From: Escherichia coli
Lineage (GTDB): Bacteria > Pseudomonadota > Gammaproteobacteria > Enterobacterales > Enterobacteriaceae
Assembly: GCF_050920415.1 (NCBI RefSeq)
Contig: NZ_CP169309.1
DNA: 64,000 nt
Strand: one strand, 5' to 3'
The notes beneath the pieces were generated by a model, which searched no databases, was not told the DNA's origin, and saw only the letters and a program-made list of their open reading frames with translations. Positions 35,996-54,319 of this stretch are shown here, piece after piece. Position 1 is the first letter of the stretch; every line of letters starts with the position of its first letter. A program made the translations under genes and the position numbers.

Positions 35996-36363
35996 TAACA
36001 TAATGTTGTAAAAACCGAATGCCCCGACCTTCAAAAACAGGTGGGGCATTCGGTTACTTATTAATGCAATAATATATTGGCTGTTTATTCATCGTGTTGA
36101 TAAGATATATGTTATATGAATGTTATTAAGGGTGGCGAGACCGTTTAATATCACAATAAGGGATTATTTGCTTACTAATAATTCCTCTGCGTTTTAAACG
36201 TCTTTTTTTGTATTATAAATCCAGTTATCCAGCCCGACTATCATCACACATCATCATCCTGTTTTCCCGCTTCGTTTAAATTTATTTATCAATCAATTTG
36301 ACTTAAGAGGGCGGCGTGCTACATTAATAAACAGTAATATGTTTATGTAATATTAAGCCGACT

Positions 36364-37188
36364 ATGCAATCACTACATGGTAATTGTCTAATTGCGTACG
36401 CAAGACATAAATATATTCTCACCATGGTTAATGGTGAATATCGCTATTTTAATGGCGGTGAACTGGTTTTTGCGGATGCAAGTCAAATTCAAGTGGATAA
36501 GTGTGTCGAGAATTTTGTATTAGTTTCAAGGGACACGCTTTCATTATTTCTCCCGATGCTCAAGGAGGAGGCATTAAATCTTCATGCACATAAAAAAGTT
36601 CCTTCGTTACTCGTTCATCACTGTACCAGAGATATTCCTGTTTTTCAGGAGGTTGCGCAACTATCGCAGAATAAGAATCTGCGCTATGCAGAAATGCTCC
36701 GTAAAAGAGCATTAATCTTTGCGTTGTTATCTGTTTTCCTGGAGGACGAGCAGTTTATACCGCTGCTTCTGAACGTTTTGCAACCGAACATGCGAACACG
36801 AGTTTGTACGGTCATCAATAATAATATCGCCCATGAGTGGACATTAGCCCAAATCGCCAGCGAGCTGTTGATGAGTTCAAGCCTGTTAAAGAAAAAATTG
36901 CGCGAAGAAGGTACGTCATATTCACAGTTGCTTACTGAGTGTAGAATGCAACGTGCTTTGCAACTTATTGTTATACATGGTTTTTCAATTAAGCGAGTTG
37001 CAGTGTCCTGTGGTTATCACAGCGTGTCGTATTTCATTTACGTTTTTCGAAATTATTATGGGATGACGCCCACAGAGTATCAGGAGCGATCAGCACAAGA
37101 ATTGCCGAACCGTGACTCGGTGGCAAGTATTGTTGCGCAAGGGAATTTTTACGGTACTAACTATTCTGCGGAAGAAATAAGATTATAG
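36364..37188 (+). CDS. gadX: AraC-family acid-resistance regulator GadX
   Basis: 274 aa with C-terminal AraC HTH. Confidence 0.92.
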   Translation: MQSLHGNCLIAYARHKYILTMVNGEYRYFNGGELVFADASQIQVDKCVENFVLVSRDTLSLFLPMLKEEALNLHAHKKVPSLLVHHCTRDIPVFQEVAQLSQNKNLRYAEMLRKRALIFALLSVFLEDEQFIPLLLNVLQPNMRTRVCTVINNNIAHEWTLAQIASELLMSSSLLKKKLREEGTSYSQLLTECRMQRALQLIVIHGFSIKRVAVSCGYHSVSYFIYVFRNYYGMTPTEYQERSAQELPNRDSVASIVAQGNFYGTNYSAEEIRL

Positions 37189-37203
37189 TTTTTACCCAGA
37201 CAT

Positions 37204-37309
37204 AAAAAAAACCCGGCATAGGGGACCGGGAAGAGGATAGTCTGCCGTCTCCAGACTAATAAACCGTTATAACACTCCCTGTTGGCACGGGAAACTTTGT
37301 GCTCTCAGT
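37204..37309 (-). ncRNA. gadY: GadY small RNA, antisense to the gadX 3' end
   Basis: Reverse complement begins actgagagcacaaagtttcccgtgcc and ends in a poly-U terminator (A-run 37204-37211 on plus). Ends are approximate. Confidence 0.6.
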
Positions 37310-37555
37310 AAGTTAAATATAACTTTTACTGGAGATAAGATCAGCCATTTTTTTATAAACATAAGCTATGCGCTGTGTGAAAATATATTCTTCTTGCATT
37401 TTCTTATTATCAATTAACTGTTATGTCAAACTACTTTTTGGATAACTTTTGGTCCTACCAAATATGGCAGTTTATGCACGAAGAAGCGGTCTGGCATCAT
37501 TTCATTAGTATACTGAAATTGAAATAATCGCAGTAATGAAATATAAGGGATAGTC

Positions 37556-38284
37556 ATGACTCATGTCTGCTCGGTGATCCTCGTTCGTCGTTCATTGGAT
37601 ATTCATCATGAACAGCAAAAAATATCGTTGCACAACGAAAGTATTCTACTGCTGGATAAAAATTTGGCAGACGATTTTGCGTTTTGTTCACCGGATACAC
37701 GACGACTGGATATCGATGAGCTGACAGTTTGCCATTACTTACAAAATATTCGTCAGTTACCGCGCAATTTAGGGTTACATAGCAAAGACCGTTTGTTAAT
37801 TAACCAGTCCCCGCCCATGCCTCTGGTGACGGCGATTTTTGATAGTTTCAATGAATCCGGAGTAAATTCGCCGATACTGAGCAATATGCTCTACCTTTCC
37901 TGTTTATCTATGTTTTCTCATAAGAAAGAACTAATCCCCTTACTTTTCAATAGTATCAGCACTGTTTCAGGAAAAGTTGAACGCCTTATTAGCTTTGATA
38001 TCGCTAAACGTTGGTATCTACGCGATATCGCGGAAAGAATGTATACCAGCGAGAGTCTCATCAAAAAAAAGTTGCAGGACGAAAATACCTGTTTCAGTAA
38101 AATATTACTCGCTTCCAGGATGTCGATGGCCAGACGATTACTCGAGTTACGTCAAATTCCTCTACATACTATTGCGGAAAAATGTGGGTATAGCAGTACG
38201 TCGTACTTTATAAACACATTTCGACAATATTATGGTGTAACGCCACATCAGTTTGCGCAACATTCGCCAGGTACCTTTTCCTGA
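37556..38284 (+). CDS. gadW: AraC-family acid-resistance regulator GadW
   Basis: 242 aa with AraC HTH. Confidence 0.92.
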   Translation: MTHVCSVILVRRSLDIHHEQQKISLHNESILLLDKNLADDFAFCSPDTRRLDIDELTVCHYLQNIRQLPRNLGLHSKDRLLINQSPPMPLVTAIFDSFNESGVNSPILSNMLYLSCLSMFSHKKELIPLLFNSISTVSGKVERLISFDIAKRWYLRDIAERMYTSESLIKKKLQDENTCFSKILLASRMSMARRLLELRQIPLHTIAEKCGYSSTSYFINTFRQYYGVTPHQFAQHSPGTFS

Positions 38285-38646
38285 CATATTTCGCATTTGA
38301 ATATTGGTCAGGATCTCACACGTGCTTCATGTGAAACTCTTCCCTGATGATTTCTGCCGGGCTACCGGCTAGTTCTCTTTCGCAGTATGCCAGGCGGTAT
38401 AGGTATTTTCAGGAGGAAAAGACTCGGCATGTTTGGGATTATTAAGCTGACAATTCATACGATTACGGGAATGTGGGTCAGTATTGTGCTGTTCAAATTG
38501 ATGACGAATGGCTGGAGTGGTTTTTACTTTCAGTGCTGTGTACTAAGCCTGGTATTCCTGACGGTTAGCTGGTTGTTGAGTGGTGAATGGTTAGCAGGAA
38601 AGAGTAAGGCTGAACCCTCACGTTCAACCTTACTCTCATTTACACG

Positions 38647-42942: not shown

Positions 42943-43280
42943 TTTAGTCCCTGAAAATTCTTGAGATATAACGGTTCTTTAAATTGCGCGCGAGGAGAGG
43001 TATGAGGGATTTACAGACCAGCGGCATAGTGGGGTTGTCAGCCAGTAAGATGGGATGCAAGCACAGTGATCGACATGGTGAGGTCAACGACAAAAAAAAT
43101 GTTGCCGTTCTGCCAACAGTTCCTGCCAGCATTCGGGCAACGAAGGGTTCTACTGGTGGATACACATACCAGGGGAATAAAGTCGTTTTCGCCTCTCCTT
43201 TAGTCATCACCGGGGATAATGAAATCAGCATCTGCATCCCTCTTCATGCCTGCCATCATTTTCAGTTAATTATGTCCTGA

Positions 43281-48459: not shown

Positions 48460-49683
48460 TTATGGGGTTATATTCTGGTAATGATTTGATAAGCGAATTC
48501 TTTTGCCAGTTGGTATTTCTATTTCCACCCCATAATTTATAGTTTTTTCATCAGGTAGCGATCTCTTTAAATAAGGTGCGTATGACATTTTTTTAGGATG
48601 AAACGTATCGTGTTGAAATATTTCGAATTGATATTCAGACATTTCTGCCCATGTTTGAATTTTATTGTATCGGGAGAGTGTCGTAAAGGCTTTAACTTGC
48701 TTATAACATTGTTTTTGGAATTCTTGCTGATATTTTATTATGTCGTTGTATGAAAGATTATTTACCCTGGTTTCTAATAATTCTATTATTGTCGAAGCAA
48801 TTTCCGCTTTTGCTCTTAAAGAGTTGTCATTAATGGTTAATAATGTTGAAAATAAACCATTGATTTGTTTGTCAACATATTGTTCATCTTTATGTAATTT
48901 TGTGATAGGGTTTTCCTTATGTGAAAAAATAGTATCAAATAAATTTGCGTCAGTGAAGTTTACATTAAGTAGATCTTCGAAATAAAACCTTGACAAGGTT
49001 AGAACGAACCCGGACAGGTCCTGTCCTGTCATATTGAAATCAATAAAGTTGGTTCCAGCAAAGACTTTCATCCTGTTTTCATTTTTACTGTGCTCAATAT
49101 ACAACCTTGTCATTTTTTGGTACAAGCGTTGAATATCTTTTATATCAGTTGGTAGATCAGTTCGTTGCCCAGAAAAATTTTTATTTTCGGAAGAAACGGT
49201 TTGGACACTGAATCTTACTGGTATTCCCTCTTCTACGAGAATTTTAGTTATGATTGGCTTATTGGGCTTAGGATTAAAGACAACAATGATTTTAGATTCA
49301 GAGTTTTTATTCTTTTCGTATCTAATGTTATTAATCTGATTAAGTATTGATTGTGTCTGTTGCGTAAGTGGTGTCGAACTTATCGTTTCAATGTTATTAA
49401 TAAGTTTTACAAGTTGAGCCACAACTTTTGAGTAGTCTGCATTTGTATATGTGGTGTTCGTGTGGCACGCATTAATTTGTTGGAGTTGTTGTTTCGCTAA
49501 ATCAAATTGTTCAGCGTTATATCCTTCTTCAGACAATGAAAAATTAACGGGTTGCTGTTCTTCCTGATTATCACAAGGCCACATCGGTGTGTTTGGTGTT
49601 TTAACATTGTCGGTATCTGTTGTGCGGTTATAAATATCGCCGTGATATGTGTTTATCATACCTGGGGTAAAGTCAATTGACAT
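48460..49683 (-). CDS. AT-rich hypothetical protein, 407 aa, possibly an uninterrupted yhiS ortholog
   Basis: Low-GC ORF rich in N, K and Q; segment [41 protein letters not shown] resembles pentapeptide-type repeats. Sits between slp and the ars region, where K-12 has an IS5-disrupted yhiS. Confidence 0.6.
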
Positions 49684-50263
49684 AACATTCCTTATTGTTC
49701 ATCTATTTCGCTAAATTTTTGCAAATCGGAGAATTAGAACAGGAATGGATTTTCTTCTACGCGGAAATAAACACAATGCGTCATATCTTCCTGATATAAT
49801 TACCTTTAACTTCCCTTTCATTTCCACCCGGTAATATTTGTGTATAAAAAAAGGGCAGTGATAGTATCGTAAAGGAAAACATTAACAACTATCAAAAAGC
49901 GCTCATTTTAAAAAGTTATGATGTTCTCCGATAGTGTGTGAAGTGATATTTTTGTGATGTTTTAGATGTGTAATAATGAACCAGGTTGAAGTGTATTTAA
50001 AAATGTGTTGTATTGGCGACTGAAATCTGCCCTTTAAAAGGGGGGATAGCACTGAGACAAAGAGGCATTGCTTCTCCGATAAAATGTCAGAGAAGCATGA
50101 TTGCGTGGTGATTGTCGATTGATGACTTACTGACGGATCCGTCATCATTCTCAAAGCATTAGTTAAGTTATTTGTGATTTTTAAGGATTATCCTATCTAT
50201 GATTTTCTACTCAGAAGGATAAGACACTCACAATGCTCCTTATAGTTTACTGCTGGCATCTAT

Positions 50264-51277
50264 TTAAAATAGCATTTGAGTCAAATAGCCCATCAAGATA
50301 GCCATACCTAAGATAACCGTCAGGAATGCAACTATCATCGGTATTCTGAACATTGATTTAAGTAATATCACTTCCGTCAGGCTTGCTCCGGCACTGCCGA
50401 TGATTAATGCCATTAATGCTCCCGGACCCATTCCTTTTGTCATCAGAACAGATGCCAGAGGGATAACCGCCTCTGCCCGGATATACAGCGGGATTCCGAC
50501 AACGGCGCTCAATGGGATGGCGAAGGGATTATCTGCCCCTGCATGAGCGGCAATCCACTCTGAGGGAATAAAGCCATAAATAAAAGAGCCTATTAATACC
50601 CCTAACAAAAGATATGGCAGTACATCTTTAAACTGTTGCAACGCATCTTTGGTGGCTAGTTTTATGGGATTAATACTTACCACAGCTTTGGTACTGCAAC
50701 AGTTTACTACAGGTTTCTCAATGGCTTTAGCCGCTGGACTACAGCAACTCACTTTTATTGGCGTATAAGTCGTCCCCGGCGAAGTTTTGGCTGGAGAGCA
50801 ACAATTTGCTGATGAGCTTTTACTGGCAATGATATGACGTTCAAATCTCAGAGAATCCAGGATAATACTGGCAAGTACGGAGACGCCGGCGGCGATAATC
50901 GCGTACAACAAGGTAACTTTCCAACCAAAGGTCACCCACATTAACCCGACGATAATGGGATTAAGTAACGGTGAAACAAATAAAAAAGTGAGAGTCGGAC
51001 CAAACCCGGCTTTCGCTGACAACAATCCACGTAGCATGGGTATTGTCGAGCAACTACAGAACGGGGTAACGGCTCCCAACAGAGCAGCCAGGAGATAGCC
51101 TCTCCCTTTTCTGGCCCCCATCATCTGCTGGATTTTATGGTCTGGCACCTTTTGTCTTATCAGGCTGACACCGGCACTAATCACTATAAACAGCAAAGAA
51201 AGCTCGACGGCGAGAAACACAAACATCTCTGCGGCATCTTGCAGCATCGCAAGCCAACTACTCATAAGTAACCTCAT
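50264..51277 (-). CDS. Cysteine-rich polytopic permease of the DUF318/ArsP-like type (putative metalloid or organoarsenical efflux permease)
   Basis: 337 aa with multiple TM segments; TPFCSCSTIP motif; central hydrophilic loop with three vicinal Cys pairs (NCCS, SCCS, NCCS). Divergent from an ArsR-family regulator. Confidence 0.7.
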   Translation of the reverse strand: MRLLMSSWLAMLQDAAEMFVFLAVELSLLFIVISAGVSLIRQKVPDHKIQQMMGARKGRGYLLAALLGAVTPFCSCSTIPMLRGLLSAKAGFGPTLTFLFVSPLLNPIIVGLMWVTFGWKVTLLYAIIAAGVSVLASIILDSLRFERHIIASKSSSANCCSPAKTSPGTTYTPIKVSCCSPAAKAIEKPVVNCCSTKAVVSINPIKLATKDALQQFKDVLPYLLLGVLIGSFIYGFIPSEWIAAHAGADNPFAIPLSAVVGIPLYIRAEAVIPLASVLMTKGMGPGALMALIIGSAGASLTEVILLKSMFRIPMIVAFLTVILGMAILMGYLTQMLF

Positions 51278-51289
51278 TGAATAAAACTA

Positions 51290-51311
51290 TATTTCCAGAA
51301 TAATCGAAATA
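51290..51311. promoter_or_regulatory. Candidate operator, palindrome 1, in the permease/regulator divergent intergenic region
   Basis: TATTTC-N10-GAAATA dyad (tatttccagaataatcgaaata). Confidence 0.4.
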
Positions 51312-51324
51312 AAGTTCAGATCAA

Positions 51325-51350
51325 GATATTTCTGGTATTATCGAAATATC
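51325..51350. promoter_or_regulatory. Candidate operator, palindrome 2
   Basis: GATATTTC-N10-GAAATATC with perfect 8-bp inverted arms, 37 bp centre-to-centre from palindrome 1 and about 25 bp upstream of the regulator ATG. Confidence 0.45.
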
Positions 51351-51372
51351 AACCAGACAGAGGGGGTGACAC

Positions 51373-51693
51373 ATGCAATTGGAAGAGGTCGCTAAGGCAC
51401 TGAAAGAGTTAGGTCATCCGACCCGTTTGTTCATATTTAAGCATCTGGTCAAAGCGGGGGAACAAGGTTTGCCGGTCGGTGAGTTGCAAAAGCAGCTTGG
51501 GATACCCGGCTCTACACTCAGTCACCATATTTCAGCACTGGTATCGGTAGGGTTGGTCAAACAAAACCGTGAGAGTCGGACGCTGATGTGTGTTTCGCAA
51601 TACGCAATGCTGGAAGCGATAATTGAATTCTTACGTGAGGAGTGCTGCGTAAACAGCAAAACAGATAGCGAAGGAGCCACGAAGAACAAATAA
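51373..51693 (+). CDS. ArsR/SmtB-family winged-helix transcriptional regulator (accessory, second ArsR-type gene)
   Basis: 106 aa; LGHPTRLFIFKHL...PGSTLSHHISALVSVGLV is a typical ArsR HTH; C-terminal cysteines (LMCVSQ...EECCVN) rather than the helix-3 CVC site; AGGGGG SD before the ATG. Confidence 0.75.
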   Translation: MQLEEVAKALKELGHPTRLFIFKHLVKAGEQGLPVGELQKQLGIPGSTLSHHISALVSVGLVKQNRESRTLMCVSQYAMLEAIIEFLREECCVNSKTDSEGATKNK

Positions 51694-51708
51694 GGGGGCA
51701 TATCCCCC
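51694..51708. terminator. Compact bidirectional terminator between the accessory regulator and arsC (convergent)
   Basis: gggggcatatccccc hairpin flanked by T-rich sequence on both strands in a 20-bp convergent gap. Confidence 0.45.
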
Positions 51709-51713
51709 TATAG

Positions 51714-52139
51714 TTATTTCAGGCGTTTACCCGCTTCATCAACCACTTTCTCGCCATCTTCCTTGGTGAACGCGCCTTGTTGCGCATCTGGCAGAATTTC
51801 CAGCACGACTTCTGAAGGGCGGCACAGGCGAGTTCCCAGCGGCGTCACCACAATCGGGCGATTAATCAGAATCGGGTGCTGAAGCATAAAGTCGATTAAC
51901 CGATCGTCAGTAAATTTATCTTCTGCAAGGCCCAGTTCCTCATACGGCTCGACGTTTTTACGCAACAGCGCGCGTACGGAAATCCCCATATCGGCAATGA
52001 GTTTGACCAGCTCATCGCGCGTTGGCGGTGTTTCCAGATAATAGATAATGGTCGGTTCTGTACCGCTGTTGCGGATCATCTCCAGCGTATTACGCGACGT
52101 GCCGCAGGCCGGGTTGTGATAAATAGTAATGTTGCTCAT
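51714..52139 (-). CDS. arsC: Arsenate reductase ArsC (glutaredoxin-type)
   Basis: 141 aa, MSNITIYHNPACGTSRNTLEMIR... Confidence 0.93.
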   Translation of the reverse strand: MSNITIYHNPACGTSRNTLEMIRNSGTEPTIIYYLETPPTRDELVKLIADMGISVRALLRKNVEPYEELGLAEDKFTDDRLIDFMLQHPILINRPIVVTPLGTRLCRPSEVVLEILPDAQQGAFTKEDGEKVVDEAGKRLK

Positions 52140-53849: not shown

Positions 53850-54000
53850 ATTGCGCTCCTGATTGTTGCACTTAGTGTCTCTCTTCGAAGCGGATAAGTC
53901 AAAAACATATATGTTTTAACGAATGCATAAGTGCAAAAGTAAGTAATAGGTGTGAATTTTGAGTTGGGTATTCATTTGAAAGGAAGGCTGAATCAGGATG

Positions 54001-54083
54001 TAAAAAAACCGACTTTGCGTCGGTTTTTTACTCTTCAGCCAGAGTTGGTGGCTCTGGCTGGAGTGAGAATGCCCACATCTAAC
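54001..54083 (-). ncRNA. agrB: AgrB small RNA (antisense regulator of dinQ)
   Basis: Repeat unit with terminator hairpin aaaaaaaccgactttgcgtcggtttttt at 54002-54030; segment complementary to the dinQ 5' region; spacing to arsR matches K-12 as I recall. Ends are approximate. Confidence 0.5.
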
Positions 54084-54234
54084 GGTTCAATACTATTAGC
54101 CAGTGGCTAACATTGCAAGCGTTAGCGATTTCTTCAGCTGGCGAAGGGACAGTTTGCTATACATGGTGGTGAAAGAGGATTGATATACTTTCATCGGGTC
54201 GCTGCCGTACCAAGCCTTGTCCGAATCCGGACGT

Positions 54235-54319
54235 AAAAAAACCGACTTACGTCGGTTTTTTTACTCTTCAGCCCTGAGTTGGTGGCCCTGGCTGGAGTGA
54301 GATAGCCATCATCTAACAC
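54235..54319 (-). ncRNA. agrA: AgrA small RNA (paralog of agrB)
   Basis: Second copy of the same unit, with hairpin at 54234-54262. Ends are approximate. Confidence 0.5.

Follow-up and report, generated by a model that had tools for sequence, protein, structure and literature searches.

The minus strand of positions 37204-37309 in the window (by which we mean the whole 64,000-nt stretch of Escherichia coli DNA that was analysed) is, judged by its sequence, the gadY gene itself and not a relative. GadY was described as early as 2004 and is expected at this place in any E. coli genome, which makes the finding, though right, an ordinary one. Overall, the best explanation of this region is almost certainly a cis-encoded antisense gadY gene, with a putative promoter of its own and an effect on gadX presumed to be of the K-12 type.

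Identification of gadY

The RNA strand, 106 nt in length, runs from ACUGAGAGCACAAAG...CCCGGUCCCCUAUGCCGGGUUUUUUUU (in full, ACUGAGAGCACAAAGUUUCCCGUGCCAACAGGGAGUGUUAUAACGGUUUAUUAGUCUGGAGACGGCAGACUAUCCUCUUCCCGGUCCCCUAUGCCGGGUUUUUUUU). When the entire window was scanned against Rfam 15, the GadY family (RF00122) matched over its full length at 37312..37199 (-), covering model positions 1-114 of 114; the score was 150 bits, where the gathering score is 45 (E = 8.3e-32). The window sequence agrees with the family consensus at every position. When aligned with the K-12 MG1655 gene (b4452), annotated as the ncRNA gadY at 3664864..3664969, the window was identical at 106/106 nucleotides, with the K-12 interval mapping to 37309..37204. 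Neither match can be put down to chance. The initial annotation had placed an RNA of roughly 105 nt on the minus strand of the gadX 3′ flank and proposed that it was GadY, to be checked by alignment to the K-12 gene. Its coordinates equal those of the mapped gene exactly, and the name is borne out by the family score, the alignment and the expected gene order. The length of 106 nt is that annotated in K-12, versus a longest form of 105 nt in the literature, where three forms, 105, 90 and 59 nt long, are described (PMC4574537). A coding role for the RNA was set aside, as the longest ORF on this strand, assessed by eye, spans ~7 codons.

The entire window runs collinear with, and in reverse orientation to, K-12 3639280..3700792; the local order is as expected: gadA-gadX-[gadY antisense]-gadW-mdtF. 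The upstream neighbour, gadX (36364..37188, +), encodes an AraC-family acid-resistance activator of 274 aa, identified by NCBIfam NF007432 (590 bits versus a cut-off of 500) and by the RefSeq annotation of an identical locus. The same annotation identifies gadW (37556..38284, +), an AraC-family regulator of 242 aa, whose ORF gave AraC-family matches that were all below equivalog cut-offs. Between the two genes lies a spacer of 367 bp, and gadY sits inside it on the strand opposite to both, where the initial annotation had put it. GadY ends 15 nt beyond the gadX stop codon, and 246 nt separate its 5′ end from the gadW ATG.

This arrangement defines the target of GadY, namely the gadX 3′ UTR, or gadX-gadW intercistronic RNA, at 37204..37309 (+). 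Here, 106 nt of the gadX transcript, starting 16 nt after the stop codon, are perfectly complementary to GadY, because both RNAs are copied from the same DNA on opposite strands. Base-pairing of GadY with the gadX 3′ UTR, also part of the initial annotation, agrees with the literature (PMC10057817, PMC11300174).

Compared with the K-12 gene (RF00122, b4452; Opdyke, Kang & Storz 2004; Opdyke et al. 2011), the RNA sequence shows no difference at all, and the strand, the position between gadX and gadW, the three predicted stem-loops, the terminator and the putative -10 hexamer are likewise the same. The differences lie outside the RNA. Between the terminator and the gadX stop codon there are a 1-bp deletion and two substitutions relative to K-12; upstream of gadY there is one change, at -25 (37334); and the gadX/gadW allele is ~5% diverged.

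Putative promoter, terminator and predicted fold

By inspection of the sequence, a putative -10 hexamer, TATATT, is found at 37316..37321 (-), which corresponds to -12..-7 relative to the 5′ end annotated in K-12. This hexamer is invariant in the eight E. coli alleles and six Escherichia sequences compared below, and it falls within a conserved promoter/upstream block at 37310..37369 (-), that is, -1 to -60. A candidate for the -35 element is the weakly matching CTGATC at 37344..37339 (-). We infer the promoter from these two elements. The gadY promoter escaped a generic sigma-70 scan, owing to the weakness of its -35 element. The putative promoter fits the published picture, in which transcription requires RpoS as well as activators and AppY binds over the -35 region. 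The gadY promoter was reportedly found to be RpoS-dependent by Opdyke in 2004. In K-12, regulation of gadY by AppY, GadX and GadW has been described (PMC10057817, PMC4574537), and an AppY motif overlies the -35 element (PMC10057817).

At the other end, an intrinsic terminator occupies 37204..37230 (-), with the hairpin CCCGGUCCCCUAUGCCGGG at 37230..37212 followed by U8 at 37211..37204. On the minus strand, the terminator scan describes a stem of 6 pairs, five of them G-C, with a 7-nt loop and a following T8; this matches the 3′-terminal hairpin and U-tract noted in the initial annotation. This hairpin is common to the minimum free energy (MFE) fold and the Rfam consensus, and 6/6 of its pairs are invariant in the five other Escherichia representatives aligned with the window. 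On the plus strand, a consensus terminator scan called no terminator in 36900-37700. Transcripts of gadX can consequently read through toward gadW, carrying the GadY target with them.

Upstream of the terminator, stem-loop 2 (UAGUCUG-GAGACGG-CAGACUA; 37238..37258, -) has the same form in the Rfam consensus structure and the MFE fold, and its pairs are invariant (7/7) across the Escherichia representatives. GadY carries a GGA motif at position 32 and another at position 58, where the stem of this hairpin meets its loop. The 5′ domain (37263..37309, -) consists of a long interrupted stem-loop 1, corresponding to Rfam helices 1-3, and is again seen both in Rfam and in the MFE fold, which thus reproduces the three-part Rfam structure. 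The gadY genes of E. whittamii and Escherichia sp. E1V33 carry just two substitutions; both lie in the 5′ domain, and each breaks a pair.

To gauge the weight of the fold, its stability was compared with that of shuffled sequences. No excess stability was seen (z = -0.46; 68/200 shuffles were as good), so the fold does not count as independent evidence. Nor was any covariation found among the six Escherichia sequences, in which 26/28 pairs never vary and the two varying pairs are broken. Since covariation is lacking and the fold is no stabler than shuffles, the identity of GadY rests on sequence and synteny; none of the results spoke against it.

Conservation of the gadY unit

To assess conservation within the species, we compared the gadY segment with its surroundings in complete E. 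coli genomes. The 114-nt segment (37199-37312) is at least 99% identical in 5412/5426 genomes. For the 2-kb gadX-gadW context (36300-38300), identity is at least 99% in 14 genomes, 95-99% in 2389 and 90-95% in 3015. We also assembled a panel of eight alleles, comprising the window, K-12, ST131 and five others, which fall into three deep classes ~5% apart (window type, K-12 type and ST131 type). In this panel, variable columns number 1/106 in gadY and 1/60 in the 60 bp upstream, versus 10.8% in gadX, 8.2% in gadW, 14% in the rest of the gadX-gadW spacer and 19.3% in the gadA-gadX spacer. The lone variable column in gadY comes from strain C11. The gadY gene thus stands out as an island of conservation with sharp edges, in a gadX-gadW region that otherwise diverges fast.

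Several observations concern particular alleles. In strain C11 (L004), the last G of the terminator stem, at the position equivalent to 37212, is changed to U, which leaves a stem one pair shorter and a U-run of nine. The gadX-gadW allele of the strain studied here is rare, with at least 99% identity in 14/5418 genomes and 94-95% in nearly all others. The gadX-gadW region is also more diverged among the panel classes (~5%) than is the window, on average, from K-12 (96.4% identity). Old recombination or diversifying selection on GadX/GadW may lie behind this divergence.

Pairwise identity to K-12 was considered as proof of selection and found insufficient. A mismatch-free run of 137 bp (37197-37333) spans gadY; however, the window is 96.4% identical to K-12 overall and contains ~53 mismatch-free runs of that length or more, and the gadY run is improbable only when set against the local rate of 5.5% (P ~5e-4). 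Because runs of this length are commonplace in the window, the argument for selection leans instead on the local contrast and on the population and species panels.

We then extended the comparison to other Escherichia. Species-representative genomes were scanned for an exact 19-mer, a pattern that cannot show absence (from E. albertii, E. fergusonii, E. marmotae or other genera); gadY turned up in five Escherichia representatives, all confirmed by Rfam (5/5). These are two genomes labelled E. coli, E. whittamii, Escherichia sp. E1V33 and Escherichia sp. MOD1-EC7003. Two further 19-mer matches, in a Eubacterium MAG and an unclassified MAG, were dismissed as chance, since Rfam found no GadY in either. 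Among the five representatives plus the window, 4/108 gadY columns show a difference, two by substitution and two by a 1-nt indel, and 102/106 GadY positions are fixed across the Escherichia representatives. Just past the U-tract, 23/35 columns vary in the same alignment, and beyond -62 all of them do (9/9). Conservation thus ends directly after the U-tract on one side and ~60 bp upstream of the RNA on the other, and on this ground we equate the conserved block with the minus-strand transcription unit and its promoter.

What keeps the sequence fixed

Conservation of a DNA segment cannot by itself tell which strand is selected, as the two strands are inseparable, and one might suppose that the block is kept mainly for the sense strand, where it would serve the processing or stability of the gadX-gadW mRNA, with GadY a by-product of antisense transcription. 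With no plus-strand terminator after gadX, the region does lie within the sense transcript. Against this, the conserved block covers ~60 bp upstream, including a well-placed -10 hexamer, and stops right after the U-tract; such limits are those of a minus-strand transcription unit and not of a gadX 3′ UTR. The terminator, moreover, is functional in form on the minus strand only, and published work reports phenotypes both when GadY is supplied in trans and when GadY is itself repressed at the RNA level (PMC10057817, PMC4574537, PMC10783499). Selection for the sense strand is therefore improbable in our estimation. We regard it as far less probable still that gadY in the window is a relic, unexpressed in this lineage. 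The rarity of the gadX-gadW allele (at least 99% identity in 14 genomes) and the change at -25 (37334) relative to K-12 could be taken to point that way, but K-12 has exactly the same RNA, -10 hexamer and terminator, and a relic should drift like its flanks, which differ by 5-12%.

The near-invariance of GadY raises a different issue. A cis-antisense pair stays complementary after any mutation, and the degree of conservation hence points beyond pairing with gadX. GadY might act mainly in trans, as a protein-titrating or Hfq-dependent small RNA (a sponge for CsrA, a regulator of sdiA or of other targets), which would explain why so little of it varies. Pairing with gadX alone fails to explain 102/106 fixed positions, and the GGA motifs at GadY 32 and 58, one of them at the stem-loop 2 junction, are in keeping with such a role, as are the accounts of CsrA titration with an effect on pgaABCD and biofilm (PMC10057817) and of sdiA targeting (PMC11300174). 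Roles of this kind, however, add to the antisense role rather than exclude it, and the published trans functions rest largely on overproduction. We consider a mainly trans-acting GadY less likely than not. The same low probability attaches to the idea that a further sequence-specific constraint is the main selected function of GadY. Candidate constraints may include trans targets, binding sites for Hfq or CsrA, and the context for RNase III recognition. A cis-encoded antisense RNA that acts on gadX remains the reading we adopt for what follows.

Proposed mechanism and relation to published work

In the antisense mechanism, gadY would have a promoter of its own, with TATATT as the -10 and a weak -35, and would be transcribed divergently from gadW as far as the intrinsic terminator, which lies 15 nt away from the gadX stop codon. 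GadY would then pair with the gadX 3′ UTR in both gadX and gadX-gadW transcripts. Cleavage of the GadY-gadX double-stranded RNA by RNase III would separate the gadX and gadW messages and stabilise them, and more GadX would in turn yield more GadA, GadB and GadC and hence better acid resistance. Here we assume that the behaviour of GadY in K-12, including its expression, Hfq binding, RNase III cleavage and effect on gadX, carries over to this strain, because the GadY sequence is identical. GadY levels in K-12 rise in stationary phase and under mildly acidic conditions.

Each step has a published counterpart. Stabilisation of gadX mRNA through pairing with its 3′ UTR has been described (PMC10057817, PMC7373196), as have the location of GadY and its binding to Hfq (PMC11300174). 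Processing of gadXW is reported (PMC10783499), and passages in papers that cite Opdyke 2011 describe it as RNase III-dependent processing of the gadX-gadW co-transcript (PMC11300174, PMC10057817, PMC10783499). Double-stranded RNA fragments of the RNase III type have been captured at gadY (PMC7373196), and activation of gadA and gadBC by GadX is documented (PMC11300174, PMC4574537). Beyond gadX, sdiA mRNA is reported as a GadY target (PMC11300174), and a passage citing Parker 2017 links CsrA titration by GadY to pgaABCD-dependent biofilm formation (PMC10057817).

GadY can be compared with other antisense RNAs and with its neighbours in the acid fitness island. RyeA/SdsR, SraG (between rpsO and pnp) and AsflhD, like GadY, are encoded opposite their targets, form perfect duplexes and are processed by RNase III, and their double-stranded RNA is detectable by p19 capture (PMC7373196). 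Unlike these RNAs, GadY raises the level of its target and binds Hfq in the manner of a trans-acting small RNA. GadF/ES205, from the gadE 3′ UTR, and ArrS, antisense to the gadE leader, belong to the same island and regulatory circuit as GadY. Both are unrelated to it in sequence, and GadF derives from a sense-strand 3′ UTR and is not antisense.

Other features of the window

A match to ES205 was found at 43092-43163 (-), just downstream of gadE, with an Rfam score of 105 bits. By collinearity, it falls within the position of K-12 gadF, the small RNA derived from the gadE 3′ UTR, and it represents a second unannotated regulatory RNA of the island that holds gadY. ES205 was also found beside gadY in E. 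whittamii and in E. coli E69.

At 497-2347, four LDR units are arranged in tandem with a period of 483 bp and 95% matches. Each unit has a match to the rdlD antisense RNA on the minus strand (592-657, 1075-1140, 1559-1624 and 2042-2107) and an intact ORF for a 35-aa Ldr toxin (MTLAELGMAFWHDLAAPVIAGILASLIVNWLNKRK and variants), the ORFs ending at 813, 1296, 1780 and 2263. In K-12, this locus holds one ldrD/rdlD unit only.

Between arsC and yhiS lies a two-gene module (49950-51720) that is absent from K-12. It comprises a gene for an ArsP-type permease (50264-51277, -; Pfam PF03773, 180 bits) and one for an HTH regulator of the ArsR/SmtB type (51373-51693, +). The module is present at a coverage of at least 80% in 2225/5426 E. 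coli genomes, with some copies being plasmid-borne. The adjacent yhiS (48460-49683) is intact here, as a 407-aa ORF with no Pfam match, whereas it is split by IS5 in K-12. The stretch 48940-49999, which lies partly in yhiS, is 88% identical to K-12 and is the most diverged aligned part of the window. Two AgrB-family matches, at 54000-54082 and 54233-54316 (-; 90 and 84 bits), correspond to the K-12 agrA/agrB pair beside dinQ and are ordinary.

Annotation and implications

As the initial annotation had anticipated for an annotation confined to ORFs, gadY goes unrecorded in standard records. The RefSeq/PGAP record of a strain identical over 36300-38300 lists just gadX and gadW there, and no annotated feature covers the 37199-37312 match in any of the PGAP-annotated RefSeq E. 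coli genomes sampled (15/15). Among the records compared, gadY is annotated only in the curated K-12 record. A small RNA that is conserved and validated by experiment is thus systematically missed by annotation. Because standard RefSeq/PGAP annotation omits this functional gene from nearly all E. coli genomes, a reading of the acid fitness island based on ORFs alone misses a regulator.

The island of conservation that runs from promoter to terminator provides clean comparative support for strong purifying selection on the RNA unit. It also poses a question, of modest interest if the premise is true, as to what beyond antisense pairing fixes the sequence of GadY.
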